A stretch of 64,000 nucleotides of DNA from an uncultured Acidobacteriota bacterium (GCA_963776315.1 CAVZMJ010000007.1:69752-133751); one strand, 5' to 3'. Shown: positions 785 through 55,960, counted from the stretch's first letter. Made by a program: numbers and translations. Notes: generated by a model from the sequence alone, not told the origin.

Positions 785-878
785 GGGCTTCTAGGCTCTC
801 GGCTTTAGGCTCTAGGAAGATTTTCGAGTATTTGGTCAAGGTTTTGCTAAAGCCTAAAGCCTAAAGCCTAAAGCCTCA
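785..878. repeat. composite heptamer palindrome with conserved core (copy A)
   Basis: The left arm is ggcttct aggctct cggcttt aggctct (786-816). The core is gaagattttcgagtatttggtcaaggttttg (817-846). The right arm is (ctaaagc)x4 (847-874), the reverse complement of the left-arm unit type. Confidence 0.85.
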
Positions 879-9289: not shown

Positions 9290-9350
9290 TCATTCATCAT
9301 TCCATTCAGCATTCAATTCAGCACTCAGCATTCGACATTCAGCATTTCCC
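9290..9350. repeat. tandem cattcag-type heptamer array
   Basis: The sequence is cattcat cattc cattcag cattcaa ttcagca ctcagca ttcgaca ttcagca. It sits in the divergent spacer between the HEAT operon and deoA. The same unit (as ctgaatg) recurs at 50940-50995 and 55807-55836. Confidence 0.8.
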
Positions 9351-11007: not shown

Positions 11008-12378
11008 ATGTCCGATCCACACAGTCCGGCCGCCCGTCCGCCCTTGCAGCGCGCGCCCTATGACTCCAGAGACGTCATGGTGCTCGGGGCCGCCGCGGCC
11101 GGCGCAACGGTCTGCGCGCTCGTCGCTCAGTATGGAGGTGTGCCCAAACTGCAGCCGCTCGTCGGCCTCATCGTCATCATGTCGGTGGCGTATGCGATGT
11201 CGACGAACCGCCGAGCCATCGACCGGCGGACGGTCGCGTGGGGGTTGACGCTGCAGGTGGTGTTTGCGCTGCTGGTGCTCAAGACCGCGCTCGGGCAGGC
11301 GGTCTTCCAGCGGCTGGGGGCCGCCATCAATCGCCTGCTCGATTTCGCGTTCGTCGGGTCGGACTTCGTGTTTGGGGCGATGGGGAACAAGGAGGTGTGG
11401 CCGCGCGTGATGACGACGGTGCTCGGGGCTGAGGGCGCGCGCTACGGCGTCGTCTTCGCCTTCCAGGTGCTGCCGACGATTATCTTCATCGCGGCGCTTT
11501 TCGCCATCCTGTATTACTTTGGCGTCATGCAGGTCATCGTGCGCCTGTTCGCCGTGATGATGCGCCGGGTCATGAAAGCCTCGGGCGCGGAATCGCTGAA
11601 CGTGGCCGCGAGCATCTTCATGGGCCAGACCGAGGCGCCGCTGACGATCCGGCCGTTTCTGCCGCGGATGACCGAGTCCGAGCTGATGACGGTCATGACG
11701 TCGGGGATGGCGCACATCTCGGGCGGCATCATGGCAGCGTACATCCTCTTCGGGATCGAGGCGAAGCACCTCCTGACGGCCGTCATCATGACCGCGCCAG
11801 GCACCCTGATGATGGCGAAGATCTTCGTGCCCGAGACCGAGCAGCCCGACACGATGGGGACGGTGAAGCTCAACGTCGAGCGGACCGACGTCAACGTGAT
11901 TGACGCGGCCGGGCGGGGCACCAGCGAGGGCTTGTCGCTGGCGCTGAACGTCGGCGCCATGTTGATTTCGTTTCTTGCGCTGGTCGCCCTGGTGAACGCG
12001 ATGCTCGGCCTGGCGGGCCTCAGCCTGCAGCAGATTTTCGGGTGGGTGTTCGCGCCGATTGCGTGGGCCATGGGGGTGCCGTGGCGGGACGCGCCGACGA
12101 TCGGCAACCTGCTCGGCACGCGCATGGCGCTCAACGAGTTCGTCGCCTACTCGCAGCTCGGCCCGCTCAAGGCGTCGCTCGACCCGCGGTCGTTCACGAT
12201 TGCCACGTTCGCGCTGTGCGGCTTCGCCAATTTCAGCTCGATCGGCATCCAGATCGGCGGCATCGGCGCCCTGGCCCCCAACCGCCGCCACGACCTGGCC
12301 CGCCTCGGCCTGCGTGCGATGCTCGCCGGCACTCTGGCCAATTTCGTCACCGCCACCATCGCCGGGTTCCTGCTGTGA
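11008..12378 (+). CDS. nupC: NupC/NupG-family concentrative nucleoside transporter
   Basis: ORF 11008..12378 is multi-TM and carries typical CNT motifs (..SIFMGQTEAPL.., ..GFANFSSIGIQIGG..). Confidence 0.88.
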   Translation: MSDPHSPAARPPLQRAPYDSRDVMVLGAAAAGATVCALVAQYGGVPKLQPLVGLIVIMSVAYAMSTNRRAIDRRTVAWGLTLQVVFALLVLKTALGQAVFQRLGAAINRLLDFAFVGSDFVFGAMGNKEVWPRVMTTVLGAEGARYGVVFAFQVLPTIIFIAALFAILYYFGVMQVIVRLFAVMMRRVMKASGAESLNVAASIFMGQTEAPLTIRPFLPRMTESELMTVMTSGMAHISGGIMAAYILFGIEAKHLLTAVIMTAPGTLMMAKIFVPETEQPDTMGTVKLNVERTDVNVIDAAGRGTSEGLSLALNVGAMLISFLALVALVNAMLGLAGLSLQQIFGWVFAPIAWAMGVPWRDAPTIGNLLGTRMALNEFVAYSQLGPLKASLDPRSFTIATFALCGFANFSSIGIQIGGIGALAPNRRHDLARLGLRAMLAGTLANFVTATIAGFLL

Positions 12379-12617
12379 CCGGGGACACTCAATCGGGACA
12401 CTCAACCGGGACAGTCACGGGGGACATTCAACCTTGAGTGTCCCCGGAGGTTTGACCACGCCTTGTGCAGTTTCTGCCATAGGCAGGCCGTTTCGAGGGT
12501 TGCCAGGGTGAGTACCTGTGGTGAGTTCATGAAAGATCGTCGCCGACCTGAGTTGCCTGTTCCAACAAACCGGCCCCGGGGACAGTCAAGAGTGACTGTC
12601 CCGGTTGAGTGTCCCCG
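12379..12617. repeat. inverted arrays of a 12-13-nt unit (cgggacaYtcaa) around a short-core variant
   Basis: Positions 12379-12448 hold four tandem units followed by an inverted copy (cttgagtgtccccgg). Positions 12574-12617 hold ccccggggacagtcaag/agtgactgtcccggttgagtgtccccg. The spacer between them contains gtttcgagggttgcc (12490-12504). Confidence 0.8.
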
Positions 12618-13436
12618 ATGACATATTTCGACAGCGTTCAGGAGGCGGCGGGGTGGGTCAGGGAGCGGATTGGACCGCCCCCTGACGTGGCGATCGTGCT
12701 GGGTTCGGGCTTGGGGGAGTTTACGGCGGCGCTCGGGGAATCGACCTCGTGTCCCTACGACGACATCCCGCACTGGCCGGCGTCAGCGGTGATCGGGCAC
12801 GCGGGGAAGCTCGTCGTGGGGACGCTCGCTGGCAAGCGCGTCGCAGCGCTCTCCGGGCGCGCGCACTTCTACGAGGGGCACGACCTGCGTACGGTGACGT
12901 TCGCGACGCGCGTCATCGGCGCGCTCGGCGTGAAGACGCTCATCCTGACCAACGCGGCAGGTGGCGTCAACCTGACCTTCAAGCCCGGCACGCTGATGCT
13001 GATGGATGATCACATCAACCTGATGGGCAGCAACCCGCTCGTCGGCGCCAACGACGAGCGCTTCGGGCCGCGTTTTCCGGACATGTCGGAGGTCTACTCG
13101 ACGCGCCTGCGGCAGCTCGCGGGAGATGCGGCGCGGGCGCGCGGGCTGGCGCTCGCCCACGGCGTCTATGCCGCGTTACACGGACCGAGCTACGAAACGC
13201 CGGCCGAAATCCGATTTCTGCGGACGATCGGCGCCGACGCCGTCGGGATGTCGACCGCGCCCGAAGCGATCGTCGCCCGGCACATGGGCGTCGATGTGCT
13301 CGGGATCTCGTGCATCACCAACATGGCGGCCGGCGTCCTCCCGCAGCCGCTCGTCCACGACGAGGTGATGGAGGTCGCCCGTCGCGTCCGCGGCGAGTTC
13401 TGCGCGCTGCTGGAGGGCATCGTTGAGCGACTCTGA
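12618..13436 (+). CDS. punA: purine nucleoside phosphorylase (trimeric PNP type)
   Basis: Taken from ORF 12609..13436. ATG 12618 is preferred because 12609-12617 belongs to the repeat. Motifs are ..VLGSGLG.., HFYEG, LTNAAGG, GPSYETPAE and GADAVGMSTAPE. Confidence 0.9.
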   Translation: MTYFDSVQEAAGWVRERIGPPPDVAIVLGSGLGEFTAALGESTSCPYDDIPHWPASAVIGHAGKLVVGTLAGKRVAALSGRAHFYEGHDLRTVTFATRVIGALGVKTLILTNAAGGVNLTFKPGTLMLMDDHINLMGSNPLVGANDERFGPRFPDMSEVYSTRLRQLAGDAARARGLALAHGVYAALHGPSYETPAEIRFLRTIGADAVGMSTAPEAIVARHMGVDVLGISCITNMAAGVLPQPLVHDEVMEVARRVRGEFCALLEGIVERL

Positions 13437-14050: not shown

Positions 14051-14191
14051 GCTGAACGTTTGAAGTCTGACGTTTGAAGGTTGAAGTGAGGAAGGCTGAA
14101 GTTCGAAGTCGGAAGTTGGAGTTGGAAGAAGGCTGAAGTCGGAAGCTGGAAGCTGGAAAGAACCCTGAACCCTGAACCCTGAACCCTGAAC
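14051..14191. repeat. tandem array of about 20 degenerate heptamers NNNNGAA
   Basis: The array reads gctgaac gtttgaa gtctgac gtttgaa ggttgaa gtgagga .. gtcggaa gctggaa gctggaa .. ccctgaa x3. No complementary arm lies nearby. Confidence 0.85.
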
Positions 14192-20894: not shown

Positions 20895-21811
20895 CAGTGA
20901 GCGTGCCTGGTCAAATGACGAACGAAACGTCACCAACGGCGCCTGTGGCTCTAACGCCGGCTGCTCCGACCGCCCGGCCGCCGGGCTTTGTCGCCTCGAG
21001 CCTGCGCATCTTCGACCTCTCGATCGGCGAGATGCTGTGGTCGCGTCGGACGATCTTCATGGCGCTGGTCGTCGGCGCGCCGGTCCTCATCGCACTCATC
21101 CTGCGGTTGCTGGTGGGCCTGGGGGCGCCGTTTTTCGACGAGCCGAGAGGCAGTGGCAGCGGGGCCATCCGCATGAACGGCCCGGCCATGTTCGGGTTGA
21201 TCATCTGGGGCATGTACCTTCGCTTTATCGTTCCCGTGCTCGGGGTGTTCTACGGGACCTCGCTCATGGCCGACGAGATCGAGGACAAGACGATTACATA
21301 TCTGTTCACGCGGCCGATCCCCCGCGGGGCGGTGCTCGTCGGGAAATACCTCGCGTATCTGGGCTGCACCGTCTTCGTGGTGCTGCCGTCGGTCGTGCTG
21401 GTCTACCTCCTGATCGTGCCGCTCAAGGGCAGCCTGGGCGCCGCGTTCCCGGACCTCTTGAAGGACCTGCTGCTGCTCGGGCTCGGCCTGGCGGTCTATG
21501 GGGCCGTATTCGCGTTCGTCGGGGCCAAGTTCAAGCGACCCCTGCTCATCGGGCTCATCTTCGTGTTCGGCTGGGAACAGGCGGCCCTGGCGTTTCCCGG
21601 ATATCTCAAGCAGTTCACGGTGATGTTCTACCTCCAGGCCATCGTGCCGCACGCCATGCCGAGCGACGGCGTGGTCAGCATGATCCAGGGGCTCTTCCGG
21701 GAGACCCCGGGGCTCGGGACGAGCCTGTTCTGGCTGGCGGTCATCTGGGCCATATTCCTGGGCTGGGGGGCCCGGATCGTCGGGCGCAAGGAGTATGTGC
21801 TGGAGCAATAG
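20891..21811 (+). CDS. ABC-2-type transporter permease
   Basis: ORF 20891..21811 has a GTG start overlapping the upstream stop and is multi-TM. Confidence 0.7.
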   Translation: MTVSVPGQMTNETSPTAPVALTPAAPTARPPGFVASSLRIFDLSIGEMLWSRRTIFMALVVGAPVLIALILRLLVGLGAPFFDEPRGSGSGAIRMNGPAMFGLIIWGMYLRFIVPVLGVFYGTSLMADEIEDKTITYLFTRPIPRGAVLVGKYLAYLGCTVFVVLPSVVLVYLLIVPLKGSLGAAFPDLLKDLLLLGLGLAVYGAVFAFVGAKFKRPLLIGLIFVFGWEQAALAFPGYLKQFTVMFYLQAIVPHAMPSDGVVSMIQGLFRETPGLGTSLFWLAVIWAIFLGWGARIVGRKEYVLEQ

Positions 21812-21902
21812 GCTCTAGGCTTTCGGCTCTAGGCTCTAGCAAGAGCTCCGAGCAAGCTCTCGAAGGTTTTGCCCAGAGCCTAGAGCCTGAAGCCCAGAGC
21901 CG
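21810..21902. repeat. composite heptamer palindrome with conserved core (copy C)
   Basis: The left arm is aggctct aggcttt cggctct aggctct. The core is aagagctccgagcaagctctcgaaggttttgc (21841-21872). The right arm is ccagagc ctagagc ctgaagc ccagagc. Confidence 0.85.
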
Positions 21903-21991
21903 ACGTTCCCCGTCCCACCTAACTGCCGCAAACGTCGTCCTTTGCGGAACTTTTTACCCGCTGACCCGTTATAATCCACAGAGGGCTCACG

Positions 21992-24193: not shown

Positions 24194-24198
24194 ACAGT

Positions 24199-24339
24199 GG
24201 TTCAGGGCTCACGGCTCACGGTTCACGGTTCAGGGTTCAGGGTTCAAGCCGGATCTCGGAGTTGGTGGTCCAAGCACTACCTGAACCTTGAACCTTGAAG
24301 CCTTGAACCTTGAACCCTGAACCCTGAACCCTGAACCCC
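24199..24339. repeat. composite heptamer palindrome with diverged core (copy E)
   Basis: The left arm is ggttcag ggctcac ggctcac ggttcac ggttcag ggttcag ggttcaa. The centre is ggatctcggagttggtggtccaagcactac (24251-24280). The right arm is ctgaacc ttgaacc .. ccctgaa x3. Confidence 0.85.
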
Positions 24340-24449
24340 GCCCCCCGTGTTACAGTGCTTTATCCCTCCGACTATGACTGTGGGAGTCTGACCTGGGAGC
24401 ACGCGTCGGGTACCTGACGCTCGGGCTGGCGCTCATCCTGGCCTACGGC

Positions 24450-34932: not shown

Positions 34933-34949
34933 GGGGTAGTCTTGTCGGT

Positions 34950-35117
34950 GGTTCAGGGTTCAAGGTTCAGGGTTCAAGGTTCAGCGTTCAAGGTTCAAAG
35001 GTTGCTCCAAGCGAAGGGGTTCTGAACCTGAACCCTGAACCCTGAACCCTGAACCCTGAACCCTGAACCCTGAACCCTGAACCCTGAACCCTGAACCCTG
35101 AACCCTGAACCCTGAAC
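34950..35117. repeat. asymmetric composite heptamer palindrome (copy F) ending in (CCCTGAA)x12
   Basis: The left arm has 7 units of ggttca(g/a) (34950-34998). The centre is short (aggttgctccaagcgaagggg). The right arm is ttctgaa cctgaa followed by 12 perfect ccctgaa units (35033-35116), and it abuts the stop of the gene at 35117. Confidence 0.92.
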
Positions 35118-35911
35118 TACGAATCACGAACCGCTCGCGCGACGCATTCATGCAAGCGCGCCACGCCGTCGGTTAACGCCGCAGGCCCCGGCTGCAGGAT
35201 GTAGGTCGACTTGATCTCGTAAATGTGATCGGCGCGCACGGCGCTCACGCGATCCCAGCCGGGCCGTTCGACGATCGTCCGTTTCTTCATCGCTTTCCCG
35301 CACCACGAGGCGATGATGACCTCCGGGTCACGTGCGGCGACCTCGTCCGGCGTGACGATCCGGTTCTTCGCCAGGCTTTCTCTCCGCAACGCCGGGAATA
35401 GCGGGCTGCCGCCGGCGATCTCCACCAGCTCGTCGACCCAGCAGATGCCCGAGATGAGCGGGCTGTCCCACTCCTCGAAGAACACTCTCGGGCGCCGGCC
35501 GAGCGCTGCGGCCTTCGCGCGAACATCATCGAGGCCGCGCTCGAGTGAGTCGGCAAGCTCCGCGGCGCGATCGCCGCAACCGACGAGTGCGCCCACCATT
35601 CGGATCATCTGCAGAATCTCGCTGATGCTGCGCTGGTTGAACGTGACCACCATGTGGCCGCGTCGGATGAGCTCGGCGGCGATGTCCGCTTGGAGATCCG
35701 AAAACGCCAATATCAAATCGGGACGCAACGCTTCGATCTTGTCGAAGCGGGCGTTGATGAACGCAGACACCTTCGGCTTCTGACGCGCCTCCGGTGGCCG
35801 CACCGTGTAGCCCGAAATCCCGACGATGCGATCGCCTTCGCCGAGGAGGTACAACGTTTCGGTGGTTTCTTCGGTCAGGCACACGATGCGTGACGGGTAG
35901 GGAGTGCCCAC
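35117..35911 (-). CDS. cobalamin-binding / periplasmic-binding-protein family 2 (BtuF-like) protein without signal peptide
   Basis: ORF 35117..35911 starts with GTG. Family resemblance includes ..RIVCLTEETTETLYLLG..RIVGISGY.. and ..LRPDLILAF... Confidence 0.7.
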   Translation of the reverse strand: MGTPYPSRIVCLTEETTETLYLLGEGDRIVGISGYTVRPPEARQKPKVSAFINARFDKIEALRPDLILAFSDLQADIAAELIRRGHMVVTFNQRSISEILQMIRMVGALVGCGDRAAELADSLERGLDDVRAKAAALGRRPRVFFEEWDSPLISGICWVDELVEIAGGSPLFPALRRESLAKNRIVTPDEVAARDPEVIIASWCGKAMKKRTIVERPGWDRVSAVRADHIYEIKSTYILQPGPAALTDGVARLHECVARAVRDS

Positions 35912-39200: not shown

Positions 39201-39426
39201 CGTCACGTCTTATATCGTGGCGCTCTATCGCGCCGTCGATCCTGTGACGGCCAGCCCTGTCGCGACGCGCGACATCGGCAAGCCGACCCCCGTCAACGGA
39301 GACATCTCGGTCGACATCTCCACGCTCGTCAACCCACTGCCGGCCGGTTCGTACTACGCCGTCGTCCGAGCATCAGGACCGGGAGGGACGGCCGCCAGCG
39401 CGCCGTCGGCAGTGTTCACCAAATAG
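36217..39426 (+). CDS. large secreted repeat protein: two concanavalin/LamG-like jelly-roll domains, six Ig-like ~95-aa repeats and a C-terminal FN3-like domain
   Basis: ORF 36217..39426 is intact, with a gggagg ribosome-binding site and a signal peptide. The lectin-like domains (~36310-36860 and ~38010-38575) share ..WQG(N/D)VEIVAR..DPWSKAGVMIRETLTGGS.HGMMLGSSAN.WRFLRR... The Ig-like repeats share ..N(Q)xPTVS(L/I)TSP.AG.SFTAPA...AAASD.DG....VDFY.G..L.G.D.TSPY...W.....GSYSLTA.A.DN.G... Confidence 0.75.
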   Translation: MPKRLIQGGALSAVALVCALTVNAGRVGAQSGQLPTPWLNRDIGGPALTGSASVLGDTFTVTGGGVDIYNTNDEFHFVYQPWQGNVEIVARVSSLEERDPWSKAGVMIRETLTGGSTHGMMLGSSANGWRFLRRFQTGSATPPGVGPGGALPGWVRLVREGNQLTGYLSMDGQTWTVVATDTLPMASTVYVGLAVTSHNPGFTSTATFTNVRVSAPSGSANQPPTVSLISPTLGSTYTAPATIALGAAAGDTDGAIAKVDFYQGTQLVASDSTHPYSADLTAAAAGTLQLTAVATDSAGTTVTSSPVSVTVNAKKNEAPTVSLTSPSAGATFTAPASITIGAAASDTDGAVAVVDFYQGSTLIGSDATSPYSMTWGSVAAGSYQLTAIARDNVGAATTSAAVAVTVNAAANQQPSVSLSSPAAGASFTAPANVTLNAAASDSDGTVASVEFYRDSTLIGSDTTSPYSVVWTGAAAGSYSLTARAVDNGGATRTSSAVAITVTGAINQLPTVSMTSPTAGQSFSAPASLTIAAAASDSDGTIAGVDFYVGALMVGTDSTSPYTAAWSNVAAGSYSLTAVARDNAGGTRTSAAVAVTVTGGASGLPSPWATRDIGAPALAGTTSLSGTTFTVTGGGVDIFYTKDEFQFAYQPWQGDVEIVARIDSLQQRDPWSKAGVMIRETLTGGSRHGMMLGSSANAWRFLRRLQTDGATASVGPVGVVPGWVKLVRVGNLVTGYQSADGVSWTVIGTDTITMASAVYVGLAVTSHNPGATSAGTFTNVTVSVPTGTSNQPPTVSLTTPAAGASFTAPATISVTAAASDTDGTVSRVDFYQGSTLIGSDTTSPYSVAWTGAPAGSYSLTARAVDDDGATGASTAVAITVTAASNQLPTVSITSPIAGQSFTAPASLTITAAASDADGTIARVDFYAGTQLIAGVSTSPYTAPWTNVAVGSYSLTAVARDNAGGTRTSGAVPITVSATAPGPTTLIFGASSDHATNVTSYIVALYRAVDPVTASPVATRDIGKPTPVNGDISVDISTLVNPLPAGSYYAVVRASGPGGTAASAPSAVFTK

Positions 39427-39427
39427 A

Positions 39428-39538
39428 CAGGCTCAGGACTCAGGGCTCAAGGCTCAGGGCTCAGGGCTCACGCAAGATCTTCGAGCATGTGGTCGAACGG
39501 TTTTGCTTGAGCCCTGAGCCTTGAGCCCTGAGCCTGCC
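39428..39538. repeat. composite heptamer palindrome with conserved core (copy B, best exemplar)
   Basis: The left arm is caggctc aggactc agggctc aaggctc agggctc agggctc. The core is cgcaagatcttcgagcatgtggtcgaacggttttgc (39471-39506). The right arm is ttgagcc ctgagcc ttgagcc ctgagcc. Confidence 0.9.
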
Positions 39539-39551
39539 TTATACTGCGACG

Positions 39552-40208: not shown

Positions 40209-40217
40209 GTGATTCTA

Positions 40218-40330
40218 GAGGTTCAGGGTTCAGGGTTCAGCGTTCAGAGTTCAACGTTCAGCGTTCTTGTGAACCCTGAACCGTGAACCTTGAACCCTGA
40301 ACCGTGAACCCTGAACCCTGAACCCGTTCA
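40218..40330. repeat. core-less heptamer hairpin (ggttcag-type arms)
   Basis: About 7 units of (g/c)gttca(g/a/c), a ttgt loop, then about 9 units of gaacc(c/g/t)t. Confidence 0.85.
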
Positions 40331-40345
40331 AGCTATGATCGCCTG

Positions 40346-41360
40346 ATGGTACTTCGTGACGTCATCGTCGTTGGTGCGGGTCCGGCGGGGCTGGCCACCG
40401 CAATCGCCGCTTCCAAGAGCAAGTTGTCCTGTCAGGTCATCGAAAAGGGCGCGCTCGTCAATTCGCTCCTGCACTATCCGACTGAGATGGTGTTCTTCAC
40501 GACCCCCGAGCTGATGGAAATCGGGGGCATGCCGTTTGTCAGTCCCTACGACAAGCCGACGCGCCTCGAGGCGCTTCGCTATTACCGGCGCGTGTCCGAC
40601 GCCTTCAAGCTGGACATCGTATTCGACGAGGCTGTTGTCGCGGTGAGCCGCGACGCATGTCGCCCGACGGGTCGCCCGACGGCGCCGGGTCGTTCGTCGT
40701 CGACACGCATTCGACACGCGGCGTGCGCCGGTCGCTTCACGGACGAACGGTCGTCGTCGCCACTGGCGCGTACGACATTCCCAATCGCATCGGCGTCCCG
40801 GGCGAGGATCTGCCGCACGTCTCGCACTACTACACGCAGCCGCACCGTTCTTCCGGAAGAAGGTGGTGATCGTCGGCGGGAAGAACTCCTCGGCCGAGGC
40901 CGCGCTCGACCTCTATCGAGCCGGCGCGCAGGTCACGATCGTGCACCGCGGCGCCGGCGATGGGAGATTCCATCAAGTACTGGGTCAAGCCCGACATCGA
41001 CAACCGCATCAAGGAAGGCTCGATCCGTGCGCGCTTCAACACGCACGTCGTCGAGATCCGCCCGACGAGCGTGGTCGTCGAGCGCGAAGGCGTGACCGAC
41101 GAGATCGACGGCCGACGCGGTGTTCCTGCTGACCGGCTACGGCGCGGACACGACGCTGCTGCGGAACGCCGGAATCGAGATCGATCCCGTGACGTGCGGC
41201 CCGGTCTTCGACGCCGAGACGTTCGAGACCAACGTGCCGGGAATCTACGCCGTGGGGCGCGATGGTGGCGGGCGTCCAGAGCGGCCGGATCTTCATCGAG
41301 AACGGCCGCTTCCACGGCGAGAAGGTGATTGAGGCGATCGCGGCAAGACTGCGGAGATAA
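40346..41360 (+). pseudogene. YpdA-family FAD/NAD(P)-dependent disulfide reductase-like protein, 5 frame changes
   Basis: Motifs are MVLRDVIVVGAGPAGLATAIAA.. and ..VNSLLHYPTEMVFFTTPELMEIGGMPF..KPTRLEALRYYRRV... Pieces lie in ORFs 40346.., 40657.., 40863.., 40960.. and 41120.., with a last frame from 41262 to TAA 41358-41360. Confidence 0.75.
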
Positions 41361-41363
41361 GCT

Positions 41364-41464
41364 GGCTCAGGGCTCAAGGTTCAGGGCTCAAGGTTCAAGG
41401 TTCAAGCCTTCAGGAACCCTTACTCGCAAGATCTTGCCGAACCCTGAACCCTGAACCCTGAACC
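41364..41464. repeat. composite heptamer palindrome, core in inverted orientation (copy D)
   Basis: The left arm is ggctcag ggctcaa ggttcag ggctcaa ggttcaa ggttcaa. The centre is ttcaggaacccttactcgcaagatcttgcc and includes the perfect palindrome gcaagatcttgc (41426-41437). The right arm is (gaaccct)x3. Confidence 0.85.
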
Positions 41465-41472
41465 AGCCCTCG

Positions 41473-42305: not shown

Positions 42306-43583
42306 GTGAACCGTCCTCGTCTTTTTGTCCATGTAGTCCATCAGCACGTACTTGCCGAGCGTCCGCGGCGTCGTGAAGTACGCCTTGCCGTGGCAGATCT
42401 CGGCGACCTTGCGGACGAAGCTGACGAGATCGTGGTCGCGCGCCAGCATGAACGTATTGATGAGGATGCCGGCCTTGCGGCACGCGGCGACCTCCGCGAA
42501 CGTTTCAGAGACGATGAACGGGTCGAGGCCGAAGGCGTTGCGATAGATGCGGCCGTCGGGGCGCGTGAGCGCCGACGGCTTGCCGTCGGTGATCATGATG
42601 ATCTGCCGCATGTCCTTGCGCTGCCGCTCGAGGAGGCGCCGCGCGAGCCGCAGGCCTTCGCGCGTGTTGGTGTAGTACGGCCCGACCCGCACGCGCGCGA
42701 GCTGACTGAGCGGGATCTCTTCGGCCGAGTCGTGGAACAGCACGACCTGAAGGGCGTCGCCAGGGTACTGCAGCCGAATCAGGTTGGCGAGCGCCAGCGC
42801 GACGCGCTTGGCCGGCGTGAACCGGTCTTCGCCGTAGAGGATCATGCTGTGGCTGCAGTCCAGCATCAGGACCGTCGCGCAGGAGCTCTGATACTCGCCC
42901 TGGACGACCATCAGATCTTCGTAATCGACCTCGACAGCCGGCCCGCCGACACTCAGCTGCCGCCTGACGGCGTTGAGGATCGTGGTGCTGGCGTCGATGT
43001 TCATCGTGTCGCCGAACTCGTAGGCCTTGGGTGCGCCGCTCGCCTCGATGCCGGTCGACATCTCGCGCGTGTCGTGGCGGCCGAGGCTGCTCTTGCCGAT
43101 GGAGCCCAGCAGGTCGCGGAGGGCGCGGTAGCCGAGAAAGTCGAGACTCTTGTCGGTGATCTCGAAGCGTAGGCTGCCGTCCTGCCGGCCCTGACCGCCG
43201 CCCTGGCCTTCACGTCCTTCGCGAGTCGACGGATCCGGACTCTGTGGTGCTCCGGTCAGATACCCCTGATGCTGCAGCTTCTCGATGATCCGCCGGATGA
43301 GGTCGTCGAGCCGCTCTTCGGCATCCTCGGCCTGCTGCCAGTCCTTGCCGAGCAGCTTCTCGAGCGTCTCATCCGAGAGCATGCCACCGTTGAGGATCGC
43401 CTCGAGGATGGCATCGTGCAGCGACTGCGCCGAGTGTCCCGGCCCGTCATCGTCGTCGTACGGCAGCCCGTAGGGGCTGTCGAAGCCACTCGAGAGCAGC
43501 AGATCGGACAGACGCGAGAGCAGATCCTCGAGGTCGATCTCGTCGAGGTCGTCGCCGGTGAACTTGGAGTAGCGATACTTCAT
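42303..43583 (-). CDS. von Willebrand factor A (vWA) domain protein, partner of the upstream ChlI-like ATPase
   Basis: ORF 42303..43583 is intact. It has an acidic N-terminal region and a vWA core with a MIDAS-like motif (LMLDCSHSM .. MITDGKPS). Confidence 0.75.
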
Positions 43584-43658
43584 TCAGCTCTCAGCCGTCC
43601 AGCTCTCAGCTATCAGCTCTCTGCTCCAGCTGACAGCTGATGGCTGACGGCTGAGAGC
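43584..43658. repeat. core-less heptamer hairpin between the ATPase and vWA genes
   Basis: Units are of the cagctct/tcagctg type. A 13-bp perfect outer stem pairs gctctcagccgtc (43587-43599) with gacggctgagagc (43646-43658). Confidence 0.8.
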
Positions 43659-43663
43659 GCGCC

Positions 43664-45242: not shown

Positions 45243-46100
45243 ATGAGGGCCTTGGCCGAGTTTTCTCAGCCCGGGCTGTCCCGGCCGCTCGTGTTCGCCC
45301 ATCGCGGCGGCGCCGCGCTGCGGCCGGAGAACACGATGGCGGCGTTCGACCACGGACTGTCGCTCGGCGCCGACGGTGTCGAGCTCGACGTTCATCTGTC
45401 GCGCGACGGCGTCGTCGTCGTGCATCACGACGACACGCTCGAGCGCACGACGGACGCGAGCGGGCCGATTGCCGCGCGGAGCGCGGATGAGCTCGCGCAC
45501 GTCGACGCAGGTTACCGGTTCACACCCGACTCGAGTGCGTCTGCACCCGCGCATCCTTTTCGTGGACAGCAGATCGGTGTGCCCCGATTGCGTGCCGTGC
45601 TCGAGCGGCATCCGGCCGCCCGGGTCATCATCGAGCTCAAGACGCCCGAGGCCGAGCTGGCGCACCGGACGATCGACGATGTCCGCGCGGCGGGCGCGGT
45701 CGACCGCGTCGTGCTCGGTTCCTTCCACTGGCGCGCGCTCGACGCGGCGCGCCGCTACGAGCCACGCATTCCGACCGGTGCCGCAAGCGAAGAGACGCGG
45801 TGGGCGCTGTACCGATCGCGCGTGCGCTGGCCGCTCGGCCGGACGAAGTACCGCGAGTTCCAGGTGCCGGAGCGCTCGGGCGCGACGGTGATCGTCACGC
45901 CGCAGTTCATCGCGCACGCTCACCGCGCTGGCCTGCCGGTTCGCATCTGGACCGTCGACGAGCGCGAGGACATGGTGCGGCTCCTGGAGTGGGGCGCCGA
46001 CAGCGTGATCAGCGACCGTCCGGACATAGCCGTGCCGGTGGTGCGCGAGTGGGCCAGCGGGTCAAACCGGGGTCAGACCAAAGGTCTGACCCCGGTTTGA
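45243..46100 (+). CDS. glycerophosphodiester phosphodiesterase
   Basis: ORF 45243..46100 has ..VFAHRGG..ENT..AF.. and ..GADGVELDVHLSRDGVVVVHHDDTLERTT... The last ~12 codons are read from an 18-bp perfect hairpin. Confidence 0.85.
   Translation: MRALAEFSQPGLSRPLVFAHRGGAALRPENTMAAFDHGLSLGADGVELDVHLSRDGVVVVHHDDTLERTTDASGPIAARSADELAHVDAGYRFTPDSSASAPAHPFRGQQIGVPRLRAVLERHPAARVIIELKTPEAELAHRTIDDVRAAGAVDRVVLGSFHWRALDAARRYEPRIPTGAASEETRWALYRSRVRWPLGRTKYREFQVPERSGATVIVTPQFIAHAHRAGLPVRIWTVDEREDMVRLLEWGADSVISDRPDIAVPVVREWASGSNRGQTKGLTPV
46062..46100. other. 18-bp perfect inverted repeat between convergent genes (possible bidirectional terminator, no T-tract)
   Basis: The sequence is tcaaaccggggtcagacc aaa ggtctgaccccggtttga. 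It is followed by a partial third copy (ccccggtctg). Confidence 0.6.
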
Positions 46101-46118
46101 CCCCGGTCTGCCCCCCGC

Positions 46119-47837
46119 TCAGCGCGGGCCGAGCGTCGCCGCGGTCGTGAACCTCGGTTCGATGTCGACGGGGACGCCGGTCAGCCGATCGAGCACCTGT
46201 TGGACCTGCGGACGCACGACGCCGAGCGCGTCGATGAGCGACCTTGGCCTTCTGGTAGCTGCCTTCCGACTGCAGCGTCATGATGTCGCGCGTGAGTGAC
46301 GTCACGGCGGCACCGATCTTCGCTTCGTCGACGGTGAACCGGCCGTCGGTCGCGACGACGAACGCCCCCTGGTCGAGGAAGTAGTTGAGCTGGATGGCGA
46401 TGCCGCGGCCGTGCGCTTCGTTGACGCCGAACCGGATCGATCGGAACGACGAGGCGAGGAACGTCGTGTACATCGTGCGGGCGATCTCCTTGTCGATCTT
46501 CCCCTGATCGGCGAGCTGTCTGAGCGCCCAGAGCCCCGAAACATCGGCCTTCGCTTCTTCGATCGCGCTGTAGGTCTCCTTGAGCTCCTGCCGGACGGTC
46601 GTCTGGCGGCCGCCCACGCTGATGTTGTGTGGCCCGAGACCGTGCATGAGCTCGTGCATGAGGATGTGGGTGAAGAACGCGTCGAACGAGACGTTCTTCT
46701 GCTGCGCCTCTGGCAGTGCCACCTTCGCAATCGGTTCGAGCACCATCCTGAACTTGGCGTCCTGGACGTTCTTCAGCATCACCCGCTTGGTGCCCTTTTC
46801 CCTCACGACGCGCTCGTCGTTCGGGAGGTTGAACGCCGCCGTCTGCACGCCGCGGTTCGCGTCACCGGCGGTGAAGACGACGTTGACGACCTTGATCGGG
46901 GCAAGCGCGCCGAGCTTGGGATTCCTGAGCGCGGGATCGATCGGCAAAGCATTCTCGAGTTCCTGCAGCTCGCGCGCCGAACACCTGCAGCTTCTTCGAC
47001 TCGGCGTCGTCGCGAATCGTGATGAACGCCTCGAACGCCGCCTTGAAGTTGAACCACTCGTCCTCGTACACCTCGTACGGGACCAATCGTCGGCTCGATT
47101 GACGCATCGAGCTCCATCCACGCCACGTCGCTCGCGTAGTAATCGTTCGAGATGAAGGCATCGGCGCGGCTGGTCAGGAACGCCTTGAGCGTCGGTTGCG
47201 CCGTGAGCTGCGCGGCCTCACGCAGCAGCGAGGCCGCCAGGGTCAGCTCGCCCTGGTATTCGACCGAATAGGGCACGGACATGAAGCGGCCGTCGGGCCC
47301 ACGGCGGATGGTCGTGAAGAAACCGGTTGCTGCCGTTCTGGCACTCCCGCTGAGTGAATCGACCCACTTCTGGATCTCGTCCTTTGTGGCGCCCGCCGGG
47401 TAGAAGTTGGCGGACTCGGGCTTGACGGGGACACCGGGGACAAACGGCTTGTGGTGATCGAGGCGCGACCACGGGCCCTTGTTGATCAGGAAGTAGTGCA
47501 GCGCATCGGCGGCGTCGCCGCCCGCGACGGTCTGACGCGCGAGCGATTCGAGCAGGGCCTCGTTGCCGGACCAGACCTGGCGGAGAAAGAGCCCGTCCAT
47601 GATGCGCGCGGCGTCGACGAGCCGCCCGAGCGCTTGTCGCTCGTTCTCGGGCAGCGCCGTGAGGTCGGCGCCGATGTCGGCCGGAGCGAAGCGCGCGGTC
47701 ATCGTACGAAGCGGCGACGGAGCTGGCGCCGTCGCCGCGGGCGGTGCTGTCGATTCTTTCACGGGGGTGTCTCCGGTGCAGGCCGCCATGGCGGCCGGGA
47801 TGAGGATGATGAGAGCGTTCACGCGTGTATGTCTCAT
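46119..47837 (-). pseudogene. M49 (dipeptidyl-peptidase III)-like zinc peptidase lipoprotein, 3 frame changes
   Basis: The N-terminus is MRHTRVNALIILIPAAMAAC (lipobox-like) in ORF 46803..47837. The middle lies in ORF 46862..47161. The catalytic part lies in ORF 46009..47121 (HELMHGLGPH, EEAKAD). The tail is in another frame and ends at TGA 46119-46121. Confidence 0.7.
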
Positions 47838-47858
47838 GGCTGAATTCCGATCCAGAGG

Positions 47859-48130
47859 TCACGAAGGCAACGCGTTCAACACGAAGCAACGAAGCCGAAC
47901 GAAGACGAACGACGCGCTGGTCGGCCGCGCTACGCGCGGCTGCGCAGGGGAGCATGCCAAAAACGCAAGCATCTTATCGAATCTCCTGATGCTTGCGTTT
48001 TCGGCAAGCCCCCCTGCGCGAGACGCCGGCCGTCGGCCGGCGTCCGACCAGCGGTGCAATCGGTGAGTTCTTGACAGTTCTTCTTCGTTCGTCTTCGGTC
48101 GCTTCGGTCCTTCGTGTCGAACCGTTGCCT
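47859..48130. repeat. 270-nt nested palindromic element (heptamer arms plus 10-bp helix plus three internal hairpins) upstream of aceE
   Basis: The outer arms are cacgaag/caacgaa units (47859-47914) versus cttcgtt/cttcggt units (48081-48130). A helix pairs cgctggtcgg (47915-24) with ccgaccagcg (48044-53). The internal hairpins lie at 47925-39, 47940-48022 (about 37 bp, with a 14-nt loop) and 48023-43. Confidence 0.85.
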
Positions 48131-48242
48131 CCGTCGGCTCCGTCAAAATCCGTCCAGGCCCTCAGCGTCCCCCCTCGTCCCGCGCTACAATAAGCGGATT
48201 GTAATCCCGACGAAGTTTCGCAGAGAGAAAGCTTGGACCCCC

Positions 48243-50933
<2,691 letters not shown>

Positions 50934-50939
50934 CAAGGC

Positions 50940-51016
50940 AATGCTGAATGCTGAATGCTGAATGCTGAAGTACGAATGCAGAATGCAGAATGCTGACAGC
51001 TGATAGCTGATAGCTA
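50940..51016. repeat. tandem array of 11 heptamers filling the aceE-aceF spacer
   Basis: The array is aatgctg x4, aagtacg, aatgcag x2, aatgctg, acagctg, atagctg, atagcta. It ends exactly at the aceF ATG. Confidence 0.9.
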
Positions 51017-52351
51017 ATGAGGACCATGCCAACCGATTTCATACTTCCAGAACTGGGCGAGAACATCGCCGGCGGCGATGTCGTCCGCGTGCTCGTCGCG
51101 GCCGGCGACAGCGTGAAGAAGGATCAGCCGGTCCTCGAGCTCGAAACCGACAAGGCGACAATCGAGGTGCCCTCCTCGGTGAGTGGGACCGTCACGGCGG
51201 TGAGGATCAAACAGGGCGAGCGCGTGAAAGTCGGACAGGTCGTGCTGACGTTCGACAGCAGCGCCACACCGGCGAAAGAGGCACCCAAGGTGCCCCAGCC
51301 CGAACCGGCGACTCCGGCTCCGGCGGCAGCAGCCGAGCCCGCGGCGGTCGCGCCGGCGGCAGCTCCCGAACCGAAGCCCAAACGAGCCGAGGTCGTCGAC
51401 ATTAGGGGAGGCGCGCGCAACGTTCCGGTCGCGCAGCCGGCGGCCGAGGCTGACTCCCAGGGACCGGCCGCACCCGCCGCGCCTTCGGTGCGGCGCCTCG
51501 CCCGCGAGCTCGGCGTCGACATCCGCCGCGTCGCCGGCAGCGGCCCGGCCGGCCGCATCAGTGCCGACGACGTGCAGGCGTTCGTGCGCAACGCCATGGC
51601 AGGAGGCATCCCCGCCGCTGGCGCGCCATCGTCGCTGCCCGACTTCAGCAAGTGGGGCGAAGTCGAGCGCAAGGCGATGAGCAACATCCGCCGCAAGACG
51701 GCCGAGCACCTCACCCACGCCTGGAACGCGATTCCGCATGTCACGCAGCACGACAAGGCGGATATTACGGCGCTCGAGACCCTGCGCAAGCAGTTCAGTC
51801 CGCAGGCGGAGAAAGCCGGCGGGAAGCTGACGATGACGGCCATTGCGCTCAAGATTGTCGCGGCCGCGCTCGGGAAGTTCCCGCAGTTCAACTCGTCGAT
51901 CGACATCGCGCGCAACGAGATCGTCTACAAGAAATCGATTCACGTCGGCGTCGCCGCCGACACCGAGCGCGGACTCCTCGTGCCGGTGATTCGCGACGTC
52001 GATCGCAAGGGCATTATCCAGCTCGCCGCCGAGCTCGGCGCTGCGTCCGACAAGGCGCGCGCCGGCAAGCTCTCGCTCGACGACATGCAGGGCGCCGGCT
52101 TCACCATCACCAACCTCGGCGGCATCGGCGGCACCTCGTTCACGCCCATCGTGAATTGGCCGGAGGTCGCGATTCTCGGCATCTCGCGGGGGGCGCGCGA
52201 ACCGGTGTACGTCAACGGCGCGTTCGAGCCGCGGCTGATGCTGCCGCTCTCGCTCTCCTACGACCATCGCGTGATCGACGGCGCCGACGCGGCCCGGTTC
52301 CTGCGCTGGGTTGCCGAAGCGTTCGAACAACCGTTTGTCATGTCCCTTTAG
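51017..52351 (+). CDS. aceF: dihydrolipoyllysine-residue acetyltransferase (E2 of pyruvate dehydrogenase)
   Basis: ORF 51017..52351 is intact. It has a lipoyl domain (..LETDKATIEVPS..), an Ala/Pro linker, a subunit-binding domain (PSVRRLARELGVD) and a catalytic domain (..LSLSYDHRVIDGA..). An ATG at 51026 is an alternative start. Confidence 0.92.
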   Translation: MRTMPTDFILPELGENIAGGDVVRVLVAAGDSVKKDQPVLELETDKATIEVPSSVSGTVTAVRIKQGERVKVGQVVLTFDSSATPAKEAPKVPQPEPATPAPAAAAEPAAVAPAAAPEPKPKRAEVVDIRGGARNVPVAQPAAEADSQGPAAPAAPSVRRLARELGVDIRRVAGSGPAGRISADDVQAFVRNAMAGGIPAAGAPSSLPDFSKWGEVERKAMSNIRRKTAEHLTHAWNAIPHVTQHDKADITALETLRKQFSPQAEKAGGKLTMTAIALKIVAAALGKFPQFNSSIDIARNEIVYKKSIHVGVAADTERGLLVPVIRDVDRKGIIQLAAELGAASDKARAGKLSLDDMQGAGFTITNLGGIGGTSFTPIVNWPEVAILGISRGAREPVYVNGAFEPRLMLPLSLSYDHRVIDGADAARFLRWVAEAFEQPFVMSL

Positions 52352-52370
52352 CTACGAACCCTATTGCAGT

Positions 52371-52468
52371 CACGAGACAATCACGATGGACACGATGGCA
52401 CGATGAACACGATGATGTTGGTTTCATCGTGTCCATCGTGTCATCGTGCCCATCGTGCGAGGATCGTG
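52371..52468. repeat. core-less heptamer hairpin (cacgatg / catcgtg) in the aceF-lpdA spacer
   Basis: The left arm is cacgaga caatcacgatg gacacgatg gcacgatg aacacgatg. The loop is atgttggtt. The right arm is tcatcgtg tccatcgtg tcatcgtg cccatcgtg cgaggatcgtg. Confidence 0.9.
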
Positions 52469-52505
52469 CAGCCGTTAGATAGTTCAGACTAAACCTCCGG
52501 ACACT

Positions 52506-53930
52506 ATGTCTGCTTCCACCCAACTCGTCGTCATCGGCGCCGGCCCCGGCGGATATGCTGCTGCCTTCTATGCGGCCGACCGCGGCATGAAGGTCACGCT
52601 GGTCGATCCGTCGCCCAACCCAGGCGGTGTCTGTCTGTATCGCGGCTGCATCCCGTCGAAAGCGCTGCTGCACGTGGCCGAGATCGTCAACGAAGCGAAG
52701 CACGCCGCCGCGTGGGGCGTGACGTTCGGCGCGCCGTCAATCGAGATCGACAAGGTCCGCGCGTTCAAGGACAAAGTCGTTGCGCAGCTGACCGGCGGCG
52801 TCGGTCAGGTCGCCAAGCTCCGTAAGATCGACTACGTCCAAGGTACGGCGGCATTCCGCGATGCGCGCTCGCTCGAGATCACGAAGGCCGATGGCACGAC
52901 GAGCACGCTCGCCTTCGAGCACGCCGTGATTGCTACCGGCTCGAGGCCGTCGACAGTGCCGGGGCTCTCTATCGACAACCCGCGCGTGATGGACTCGACC
53001 GCCGCACTCGACCTGCCGGACATCCCGAAGTCGCTTCTCGTCGTCGGCGGCGGCTACATCGGGCTCGAGCTCGGGAGCGTGTACGCCGCCCTTGGATCGA
53101 AGGTGACCGTCGTCGAGATGACCGACGGGCTCCTGCCGGGAGCGGACCGCGACCTGGTGAACATCCTCGCGAAGCGGATCGCATCGATCTGCGAGGCCGT
53201 CCTGCTCAACACCAAAGTCTCTTCGGTCAAAGACGCCAAGGACGGCGTGACGGTCACCTTCGAGGGCCAGTTACCCGAGGGGATGCCGAACGAGCGCACC
53301 TTCGATCGCGTGCTCGTGTCCGTCGGCCGCCGTCCGAATTCCGCGGTGCCAGGGCTCGACAAGACGCGCGTGAAGGTCAGCCAGAAAGGGTTCATCGAGA
53401 CCAACTCGTCGCGGGCAACGCACGAACCGACGATCTATGCCATCGGCGACGTGGTCGGGGAGCCGATGCTCGCGCACAAGGCGTCGCACGAAGCGCGCGT
53501 GGCCATCGACTCGATCCTCGGCGAACGCGTGCTCTTCGAGCCCGAGGCCATTCCCGCGGTGGTCTTCACTGATCCCGAAGTCGCGTGGTGCGGCCTGACC
53601 GAGAACGAGGCCGCGAAACAGAAGCGCGAAGTCGTCGTCACGCGGTTCCCGTGGGGCGCCTCGGGCCGCGCTATCACGCTCGATCGCACCGATGGCATGA
53701 CCAAGCTCGTCATCGATCCCAAGTCCGAGCGAATATTGGGCGTGGGCATCGTCGGCCCCGGCGCCGGCGAGCTGATCGCCGAAGCCGTGCTCGCCGTCGA
53801 GATGGGCGCGACCGCCGCCGACGTCAAGCTCAGCATCCACGCGCATCCGACGCTCTCGGAGACCGTCATGGAAGCGGCCGAGGTCTTCTTCGGCGAGTCG
53901 ACGCACGTCTACAAGCCGAAGAAGAGATAG
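52506..53930 (+). CDS. lpdA: dihydrolipoyl dehydrogenase (E3)
   Basis: ORF 52506..53930 is intact, with GAGPGGY, the redox-active CLYRGCIPSK motif, the NAD site GGGYIGLE and a C-terminal ..HAHPTLSE... Confidence 0.93.
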   Translation: MSASTQLVVIGAGPGGYAAAFYAADRGMKVTLVDPSPNPGGVCLYRGCIPSKALLHVAEIVNEAKHAAAWGVTFGAPSIEIDKVRAFKDKVVAQLTGGVGQVAKLRKIDYVQGTAAFRDARSLEITKADGTTSTLAFEHAVIATGSRPSTVPGLSIDNPRVMDSTAALDLPDIPKSLLVVGGGYIGLELGSVYAALGSKVTVVEMTDGLLPGADRDLVNILAKRIASICEAVLLNTKVSSVKDAKDGVTVTFEGQLPEGMPNERTFDRVLVSVGRRPNSAVPGLDKTRVKVSQKGFIETNSSRATHEPTIYAIGDVVGEPMLAHKASHEARVAIDSILGERVLFEPEAIPAVVFTDPEVAWCGLTENEAAKQKREVVVTRFPWGASGRAITLDRTDGMTKLVIDPKSERILGVGIVGPGAGELIAEAVLAVEMGATAADVKLSIHAHPTLSETVMEAAEVFFGESTHVYKPKKR

Positions 53931-53992
53931 CCGCGGCTCGCAACTGGCTGCTCGCTCGGCTGCTGGCGGTTACTCAGGCGCTCGACTGGGCC

Positions 53993-54715
53993 CTAACGAC
54001 TGCTGAGCCTGCGAGCACCGAGCCTGCAGCTCGACCACTCGCTCGCCCTCGCAAACACCGCATCCATCATCGGCGGCGTGAGTTTCCCCGTATTCGTATT
54101 CTGACGGCTCGGGTGGTACGAACCGATCACCGTGTATCCGTCGGCGGTCTCGTAAGCAACGTCGTGACCGAACGGCGGCCGCGGCCGGACGATGATGCCG
54201 CGGTGGGCGAGCAGGCGCCAGGCGGCGTCGAACCCGATGCGGCCGAGGCCGATGATGATCGAGAGGCGCGGTAACGCCGCCGCTTCGGCCACCAGGTGCG
54301 GATGGCAGGCGGCGATCTCGGCGGGCGTCGGTTTGTTGTCGGGTGGCGCGCAGCGGACCGCGGCGGCGATGAACGCGTCGGTCAGTGTCAGGCCGTCGTC
54401 CGCGGTTCGCGCGGTCGGAATACTGGCGAAGCCGTGCGCGTGCATCGCCCGCATCAGGAAGTCTCCGGATCCGAGCGGGCCGTCCCCGGTGAAGACGCGC
54501 CCGGTCCGGTTCGCGCCGTGGGCCGCCGGCGCCAGGCCGATGATCAGGACGCGAGCCTGCGAGTCACCGAATCCCGGCACCGGTCGTCCCCAGTACGTCT
54601 CGTGTCGATGCGCGGCTTTTTTCTCGGTCGCGATGCGCTGGCAGTAGGTGCGCAGGCGCGCGCACGTGTTGCAGGAGATGATCTGCTGTCTGACTTCTGC
54701 GAGGGTTCCTGTCAC
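53993..54715 (-). CDS. uracil-DNA glycosylase, family 5 (UdgB-like)
   Basis: Taken from ORF 53993..55126. Motifs are GLAPAAHGANRTGRVFTGD and SYHPSRQNTNTG. The GTG start at 54715 (VTGTLAEVRQQIISCNTC..) is preferred. The upstream in-frame ATG at 54847 would add a segment read from repeat sequence. Confidence 0.75.
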   Translation of the reverse strand: MTGTLAEVRQQIISCNTCARLRTYCQRIATEKKAAHRHETYWGRPVPGFGDSQARVLIIGLAPAAHGANRTGRVFTGDGPLGSGDFLMRAMHAHGFASIPTARTADDGLTLTDAFIAAAVRCAPPDNKPTPAEIAACHPHLVAEAAALPRLSIIIGLGRIGFDAAWRLLAHRGIIVRPRPPFGHDVAYETADGYTVIGSYHPSRQNTNTGKLTPPMMDAVFARASEWSSCRLGARRLSSR

Positions 54716-55806: not shown

Positions 55807-55960
55807 GAAATGCTGAATGCTGAGTTCTGAATGCTGTTGGTCTGCAACTCTTGGCTGCCGGAACCCCGAACCCCGAACCCCGAACCCCGAGCGCCCGAAC
55901 TCCGAACCCCGAACGCCGAACCCCGAACCCCGAACCCCGAACCGAGCCGAACGTCCCGAA
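55807..55960. repeat. tandem arrays: ctgaatg-type units, then about 14 ccccgaa units
   Basis: Positions 55807-55836 read gaaatgctgaatgctgagttctgaatgctg. Positions 55859-55960 hold ccccgaa and variants (ccccgag, ctccgaa, cgccgaa). No complementary arm is present. Confidence 0.9.

Follow-up and report, generated by a model that had tools for sequence, protein, structure and literature searches.

There is a nested palindrome of 276 bp (47859-48134) in the spacer between a gene for an M49-type peptidase and aceE, within the 64-kb stretch of DNA analysed here (hereafter called the window). Its position and elaborate structure raise the question of whether it regulates the pyruvate dehydrogenase operon, since the first-pass annotation had placed it where the aceE promoter and 5′ UTR should be, or whether it arose for other reasons. 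Our analysis indicates that the structure is real and extreme. Its meaning is likely to be ordinary, however, in that it appears to be a young, lineage-specific compound palindrome derived from a mutational process whose activity is conspicuous in this genome.

The window can be placed in the order Vicinamibacterales of the Acidobacteriota on the basis of a scan of GTDB representative genomes with a repaired aceE N-terminus. The best GTDB match to this N-terminus is L001, with 93% identity, and across the closest relatives (L001, L161 and L164) the aceE N-terminus is 90-93% identical. The neighbouring gene on the left is 67% identical to a gene with the Pfam domain Peptidase_M49, and its neighbour on the right encodes a pyruvate dehydrogenase E1 of the homodimeric type (aceE). 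Together these assignments bear out the gene context that had been proposed for the spacer. The peptidase, which carries a lipoprotein-like signal peptide, has its start codon on the minus strand at 47835-47837, only 23 nt from the outermost pair of the palindrome, and the aceE ATG is located on the plus strand at 48243. Both the peptidase gene (46009-47837) and aceE (48243-50930) have coding sequences that are broken up among two or three reading frames. Pfam searches with their frameshifted fragments gave no match, and the identities were taken from orthologues. Because the E2 and Lpd genes are intact, the broken frames suggest long-read indel errors rather than pseudogenes.

Architecture and predicted folding

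Every layer that had been described for the palindrome was recovered with an inverted-repeat finder. The outer left arm (47861-47912) comprises 28 nt of unique mirrored sequence followed by CGAAG-rich short tandem repeats with a period of about 10, and is evident from inverted-repeat pairs, TRF and the MFE fold. The outer right arm (48077-48134), evident from inverted-repeat pairs and TRF, is the mirror of the left arm with slippage of units, and is CTTCG-rich with a period of 9-10. The matching pieces of the two arms are 12-22 nt long and 86-94% complementary. TRF reports one array in the left arm (47888-47912; period 10, 2.5 copies) and two in the right arm (48077-48106 and 48083-48119). The arrays at 47888-47912 and 48077-48119 are mutually complementary, which is to say that short-unit arrays are present in opposite orientation within one intergenic spacer. 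Arms of about 55 nt built from heptamers had been described. The arms are indeed present, but clean heptamers are not, given the period of 9-10 and the outermost ~28 nt of unique sequence.

Inside the arms, a perfect 10-bp helix is formed between cgctggtcgg in the left half (47915-47924) and ccgaccagcg in the right half (48044-48053), exactly as predicted. This helix, which is seen both as an inverted repeat and in the MFE fold, closes a four-way junction, and an extended version of it (47915-47928 with 48040-48053) spans 14 nt with 93% complementarity. Hairpin 1 (47925-47939; ccgcgc-tac-gcgcgg) is supported by the fold and by an alignment with relatives (A3). Hairpin 3 (48022-48044; gacgccggcc-gtc-ggccggcgtc), found as an inverted repeat and in the fold, has a perfect GC-only stem of 10-11 pairs, and both of these hairpins agree with their earlier description. 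Between them lies hairpin 2 (47940-48021), which is supported by the inverted-repeat search, by BLAST and by A3. Its 32-nt arms (47942-47973 and 47988-48019) are 91% complementary and flank the 14-nt loop ttatcgaatctcct (47974-47987). The annotated hairpin and loop are therefore retained, although the stem has about 30 pairs and not the ~37 that had been counted.

An asymmetric segment of 31 nt (48054-48084), which separates the inner helix from the right arm, is left unpaired in the MFE fold. It includes the hexamer TTGACA (48071-48076), which has no −10 hexamer to match it, and a sigma-70 scan found no promoter-like site anywhere in the element.

The folding calculation recommended by the first-pass annotation gives a multi-branched, nested layout that is the same on either strand. 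The predicted RNA fold has a free energy of −171.3 kcal/mol for the plus strand (z −13.5) and −181.8 kcal/mol for the minus strand (z −14.3), and with DNA parameters the value is −112 kcal/mol (z −13.3). None of 200 shuffled sequences folds as well as the element. The same fold is found on both strands because the element is a DNA palindrome, and thus the fold alone is uninformative regarding a role as RNA. Some of the small bulges in the arms may be artefacts, given the frameshift-type indel errors in the assembly.

Representation in related genomes

Hairpin 2 is the sole part of the element that has homologues, and they are found in L001, L161 and L164. Each of these relatives carries only one piece of ~60 nt, consisting of a single arm plus an inverted spacer. 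In a BLAST comparison, window positions 47933-47992 match L001 5923-5864 on the opposite strand with 88% identity over 60 nt (E 6e-17), and the match to L161 extends over 55 nt at 87%. The right half of hairpin 1, taken as its reverse complement (agccgcgcg), prolongs the stretch homologous to relatives in A3. The homologous piece is not palindromic, and in the two relatives for which it was folded it behaves like shuffled sequence (z +1.05 for L001 and −1.25 for L161). Instead of an empty site, these genomes have 73 nt of partly homologous filler in the spacer.

There is no trace of the element in the syntenic spacers of L032, L091, L162 and L165. BLAST and motif searches of the 64-kb window and ~165 comparison loci revealed no second copy of the arms, of hairpins 1-3 or of any other module, the only matches being those of the element to itself and to the orthologous sites in L001 and L161. 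The outer-arm motif occurs in the window only as the two arms themselves, and its exact form is absent from 163 comparison loci. The first-pass annotation had made its view of the element depend on pairings that are conserved in related genomes. Such pairings are absent, with a single arm in three relatives and nothing in the other four, and judged in this way the idea of a structured regulator fails.

The spacer of L161 has features of its own. Positions 1-110 of this short-read contig, which ends there, differ from the other sequences on either side of a shared 45-nt core, and a new imperfect inverted repeat (ggcgctcgcac / gtgtcagcgtcc) is present in the flank. The aceE leader of L161 is identical to those of L001 and L164, yet the new flanking inverted repeats set it apart, which indicates that the spacer is rearranging even among near-identical strains.

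A proposed model for growth in place

We consider it fairly probable that what we see here is a compound extragenic palindrome, specific to this lineage, which grew in place and is not a conserved cis-regulator of aceE. Part of the evidence comes from A3. In the relatives, a mini inverted repeat of 4-5 bp, GCAT(C)...GAT(G)C, surrounds a 14-nt spacer, TGGAGATTCGATAC. In the window the corresponding arms are 32 nt long, and the hairpin 2 loop, TTATCGAATCTCCT, is the reverse complement of TGGAGATTCGATAC. Moreover, both arms in the window share derived bases (gcT, cCCc) that are seen in none of L001, L161 and L164. Homogenisation and expansion of arms together with inversion of the spacer is the signature of template switching (PMC8604942, PMC13100816, PMC8794818), and events of this type can create long hairpins in one step (PMC8794818). 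Both changes are apparent here relative to the sister sequences, in A3 and in the opposite-strand BLAST match. Later slippage would be expected to shift the register of the 9-10-nt units, and such shifts are seen between the outer arms, which are otherwise mirror copies of each other.

These observations are consistent with the following series of events. The starting point would have been a short quasi-palindrome, GCAT(C)-14 nt-GAT(G)C, in the peptidase-aceE spacer, such as is still present in the sister lineage. Template switching during replication would have converted it into hairpin 2, with 32-nt arms and an inverted spacer. More inverted copying, combined with slippage of short tandem repeats, might then have yielded the remaining hairpins (1 and 3), the 10-bp helix and the outer arms, which are rich in repeats. 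Many intergenic spacers in this genome are probably filled by the same process, such that mirrored-repeat hairpins are quickly gained and lost.

The outgroups do not have the sequence, and thus the polarity of the change is set by one sister clade, with loss of an arm in L001, L161 and L164 being a possible alternative. In addition, the right flank expected from the model (agccgcgcg) is missing beside the right arm, and extra events must therefore be assumed, as is also the case if the helix and hairpins 1 and 3 are to be explained. Selection could be an alternative source of the very low folding energy and of the perfect inner stems.

Repeat-armed hairpins in the surrounding genome

There are 27 arrays of period 7 in the 64-kb window, and, besides the nested element, about 13 mirrored pairs that can form hairpins. 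Such repeat-armed hairpins are located at 780-880, 1611-1790, 12370-12630, 21805-21905, 24195-24342, 34945-35130, 39425-39540, 40215-40330, 41360-41468, 43580-43662, 46058-46118 and 52375-52462. Two of them, at 1611-1790 and 12370-12630, are further compound elements with multi-branched centres. A frame-independent profile of the coding strand reveals that the elements reside in tandem, convergent and divergent spacers alike.

Long hairpins of this kind occupy most intergenic spacers. Their arms are mirrored short tandem repeats, mostly heptamers (GGTTCAG, GGCTCAG, GGCTCTA), and where one arm of a hairpin has a variant repeat unit, the other arm often has its exact mirror image. Many of the heptamer units contain CTGA, like the TAACTGA repeats in Beggiatoaceae. 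Other spacers carry two heptamer arrays that are not complementary to each other (50940-51015, 55809-55943, 9291-9346 and 14098-14191 in the window, and 8681-8833 in L001). The spacer between aceE and aceF has (AATGCTG)n followed by (AGCTGAT)n, an arrangement that is kept in L001 with another length and an extra centre of ~80 nt.

Arrays of period 7 are absent from 127 of 151 aceE loci that belong to other taxa. Further occurrences are in other Vicinamibacterales and in one genome each of the Ignavibacteriaceae, Gemmataceae and Acidobacteriaceae. Around the pyruvate dehydrogenase operon, paired heptamer arrays that are locus-specific and often inverted were noted in L012 (Ignavibacteriaceae), L029 (Gemmataceae) and L036 (Acidobacteriaceae), as well as in L004, L015 and L163 (Vicinamibacterales), genomes whose relationship to the one studied here is distant or lacking.

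Variation in length and sequence between close relatives is found in the peptidase-aceE spacer (the window versus L001, L161 and L164) and in four other spacers. The hairpin at 43580-43662 has a z-score of −6.4 in the window and −3.4 in L001 (1520-1612), and the spacer downstream of lpd shows the reverse, with −1.8 in the window (53930-54030) and −10.6 in L001 (11630-11725). Orthologous spacers therefore flip between a near-perfect and a decayed hairpin at ~93% identity of the aceE N-terminus. The spacers at 46058-46118 of the window and 4020-4095 of L001 were likewise compared for hairpin turnover, and a palindromic array of 11-mers, GGGGTCAGACC, has unequal copy numbers in these two genomes. 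Between aceF and lpd the window has a spacer of 154 nt with a hairpin (52351-52505), whereas the corresponding distance is −1 nt in L001 and L019, 8 nt in L004 and 12 nt in L032.

One sub-family of these hairpins has a conserved top of ~33 nt, GCAAGATCTTCGAG-N7-TTCGAAGGTTTTGC (also written GCAAGATCTTCGAG...GGTTTTGC), with heptamer arms that differ among its members. There are three representatives in the window (810-854, 21834-21880 and 39467-39513) and one in L001 (11656-11701), recognized by an nhmmer profile of the four cores with E-values of 8e-13 to 6e-9, and the sub-family is found only in the window and this closest relative. The stem of hairpin 2 had been thought reminiscent of this core, but the resemblance proved to be marginal. 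A local match of 13-18 nt is seen for the top of hairpin 2 in 2 of 20 core-by-strand comparisons (shuffle p ~0.007, uncorrected), and the nhmmer profile has no match at E≤10 in 47859-48134. Likewise, the similarity of the segment 48054-48084 to the core is not significant in local alignments with shuffles. Scans of viral contigs produced one chance match to a hairpin 2 arm, in coding-looking sequence, and none to the family core.

Possible mobility of the element

The recurrence of arm units in the window invites the proposal that the element is mobile but non-autonomous, resembling a MITE or a REP/BIME, or that it consists of several palindromic units inserted into one another, and that it reached the spacer by transposition. 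We regard this as improbable for the locus studied here. Long terminal inverted arms are certainly present (47861-47912 and 48077-48134), as in a MITE, and (GGTTCAG)n recurs at no fewer than six sites in the window. The unit TCATCGTGNCCATCGTG is found both at 1747-1780 and at 52424-52457, the latter in the aceF-lpd spacer, where 52351-52505 has been cleanly gained, the two genes being at most 12 nt apart in relatives. It is also the case that Acidobacteria encode IS200-type tyrosine transposases with long flanking terminal inverted repeats (PMC3733652). However, the arms and inner hairpins each occur just once in the window and are not repeated in the 165 loci, and the relatives have the homologous piece of ~60 nt at the same place and not an empty site. 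The geometry of hairpin 3 is also at odds with that of CGTC-type REPs (PMC3733652). Among the features expected of a MITE, neither a target-site duplication, nor a clean empty site, nor dispersed copies were found in the 64-kb window and ~165 loci.

A candidate target-site duplication, TCCGATCCAG on the left and TCCGTCCAG on the right, was rejected because the two strings are at unequal offsets from the ends of the palindrome and similar strings are present on both sides in relatives. With regard to the features of an inverton (an invertible promoter switch), the element has inverted repeats with no promoter-like site within them, and the 60-nt core is oriented differently in the relatives than in the window.

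Some of the other elements in the window, such as the 154-nt one between aceF and lpd and that at 1611-1790, do look inserted and have arm units in common between loci. The arms of the aceF-lpd hairpin are of a mirrored CACGATGG type. The recurrence of its arm unit TCATCGTGNCCATCGTG at 1747-1780 hints that some elements are mobile, and mobility of at least part of the hairpin class is thus hinted at by these sequences.

Position relative to the predicted promoters

The alignment of aceE-proximal upstream sequence from 13 Vicinamibacterales (A2) contains a single conserved block, which is outside the element. In the window this block is the dyad CTACAAT-aagcgg-ATTGTAA (48185-48204, plus strand), and its consensus, CTA(C/G)AAT-N5-6-(A/G)TT(G/C)(T/C)A, is located 39 nt before the aceE ATG. 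The dyad includes a −10-like TAnAAT, and its halves co-vary in L162 (CTAGAAT...ATTCTAC). It is likely that the dyad is the −10 box or an operator of aceE. Possibly it is a two-way promoter common to aceE and the divergent peptidase gene, and it probably serves both of these genes in some manner.

The end of the element is 51 nt from the dyad, on its upstream side. Because the sole conserved block upstream of aceE is downstream of the element, its conservation indicates that the element precedes the likely promoter of aceE and is not part of the 5′ UTR of this gene, contrary to the placement made by the first-pass annotation.

The distance between the peptidase start codon and the dyad is 23 nt in L091, 59 nt in L165, 65 nt in L032, 66 nt in L162, 115 nt in both L001 and L164, and 347 nt in the window. 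Since the dyad is much nearer to the start codon in syntenic relatives, the peptidase promoter is probably at or beyond the dyad. The element would then be interposed between the peptidase promoter region and the peptidase start codon. If so, its minus strand would be part of the peptidase leader, and the element is thus possibly within that leader. The putative leader of 378 nt has a predicted folding energy of −218 kcal/mol (z −14.4), with pairing that reaches just upstream of the start codon.

One interpretation of this arrangement is that the structure is under selection, either as a folded 5′ leader of the peptidase gene that affects stability or translation, or as a cruciform that serves as a supercoiling sink or insulator between divergent promoters. 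The element does lie between the peptidase start codon and the dyad, which is 3-66 nt from the start codon in relatives, and the minus-strand RNA is more stable by 15 kcal/mol, with four G-U pairs versus two for the plus strand. The z-score of the putative leader and the extent of its pairing are compatible with such a role as well. Nevertheless, we judge selection to be an unlikely explanation. The structure is absent from all relatives and orthologous hairpins decay freely. Furthermore, across the repeat-armed hairpins there is no consistent bias of stability towards the sense strand, and so the class as a whole lends no support to selection at the RNA level. The G-U asymmetry was also considered as an indicator of the transcribed strand. 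It favours the minus strand here, but was set aside as uninformative given the inconsistent bias of the class.

For a palindrome that grew in place, transcription, if any, would be of the minus strand and would yield a 5′ leader of ~350 nt for the peptidase, which could fold into a multi-branched structure. As DNA, the element would be a cruciform-prone sequence beside two divergent promoters. There is no sign of a selected function for the element.

A riboswitch-like leader or operator complex for aceE, which the abundant structure in the spacer upstream of this gene might suggest, is highly improbable and largely refuted. The −10-like dyad and a leader of ~45 nt are both downstream of the element, the element is missing from orthologous spacers, and a DNA palindrome that folds alike on either strand provides no evidence for an RNA. 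It is also without a match in Rfam. An E-value scan of 47000-49000 with Rfam 15 yielded only sub-threshold noise from miRNA hairpins (39 bits versus a gathering score of 100), and nothing in the whole window attains its gathering score. ARAGORN, which was run because of the cloverleaf-like junction, found no tRNA or tmRNA. Because it is not a conserved leader, the element matters little for the regulation of pyruvate dehydrogenase.

An artefact of long-read assembly, either a fold-back chimera or a polishing error, is brought to mind by the many frameshifted ORFs in the window, which are typical of long-read indel errors, but is very unlikely indeed given that the arms are imperfect and layered, the element is inside the contig with flanks that are collinear with relatives, its core is present in the short-read contigs L161 and L164, and repeat-armed hairpins also occur in contigs with SPAdes-style NODE names such as L005.

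Implications

The genome-wide class of repeat-armed hairpins is of greater interest than the locus of the nested element. The relatives can be viewed as the state before expansion, with a quasi-palindrome of 4-5 bp, and the window as the state after it, with a hairpin of 32-bp arms, an inverted spacer and nesting. Given these two states and the same process at many spacers, this lineage offers a natural system for observing the birth of hairpins. It could be used to follow how template switching and slippage make long hairpins from scratch, how rapidly such hairpins decay, and whether they are eventually put to use by the cell. The Vicinamibacterales are an abundant but little-studied group of soil bacteria.

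A bolder proposal, which we think quite improbable, is that in the Vicinamibacterales, and in certain other lineages from soil, mirrored-repeat hairpins are built and spread into most spacers by a system that is either dedicated to this or unusually active, and that the nested element is a functional product of it. Candidates for such a system would include an unrecognised class of mobile elements defined by structure, a repeat-binding protein, or a peculiarity of replication or repair. If this were true, the nested element might be, for example, a folded leader of 350 nt or a cruciform by which the promoter of the peptidase gene is coupled to that of pyruvate dehydrogenase.

Comparison with known systems

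A high density of repeat-armed hairpins in Vicinamibacterales was not encountered in the literature searched, and we have therefore compared the element with several systems that resemble it in part. The TAACTGA direct heptamers of Beggiatoaceae, Cyanobacteria and Bacteroidetes and the cyanobacterial STRR sequences are almost all direct repeats of one unit (PMC4679880). Like the arrays described here, they are abundant short tandem repeats that occur in spacers and also within operons and beside start codons. The present element differs in that it is a mirrored, nested palindrome with another unit.

REP, BIME and REPIN sequences have proposed roles in supercoiling and mRNA stability (PMC3733652, PMC3116915). 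The element shares with them an intergenic, GC-rich palindromic character, an occasional clustering into composites and a rapid turnover. Unlike REPs and REPINs, however, its inner hairpins are single-copy in the 64-kb window and 165 loci, it lacks a GTAG tag, and it is not known to have a RAYT gene in its vicinity. The CGTC REPs have stems of 8-9 bp that start with A-T pairs and loops of 4-5 nt (PMC3733652). Hairpin 3 has similar GACG...CGTC brackets, but its stem is an all-GC one of 10 bp and its loop is 3 nt.

There is also a correspondence to the inverted repeats made or expanded by template switching, quasi-palindrome correction included (PMC8794818, PMC8604942, PMC13100816, PMC7202029), in which a short imperfect repeat becomes a pair of long homogenised arms and the spacer is inverted. 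In contrast to the published examples, at least four palindromes are nested or adjacent here over 276 bp, with tandem-repeat slippage in addition, and the apparent genome-wide rate is unusually high.

By analogy, the closest description of the element appears to be provided by the inverted heptamer pairs of Xanthomonas. The GGGAATC heptamer arrays of that genus form 70-75 inverted pairs per genome, are intergenic and strongly variable between close relatives, and have no known function (Rehm et al. 2015, PMC4692102). In both cases, arrays of the same unit are present in opposite orientation in one spacer, where a stem-loop or cruciform is possible, and there are many loci per genome whose length and sequence vary between close relatives. 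The organism studied here belongs to a different phylum, the Acidobacteriota, and its repeat unit changes from locus to locus, with a period of 9-10 in this element even though most other loci in the window have a period of 7. Since the unit is CGAAG-rich and not G-rich, no G-quadruplex is expected, unlike the situation in Xanthomonas. Finally, the arms of the element enclose a four-way junction of 140 nt that is itself composed of further palindromes.
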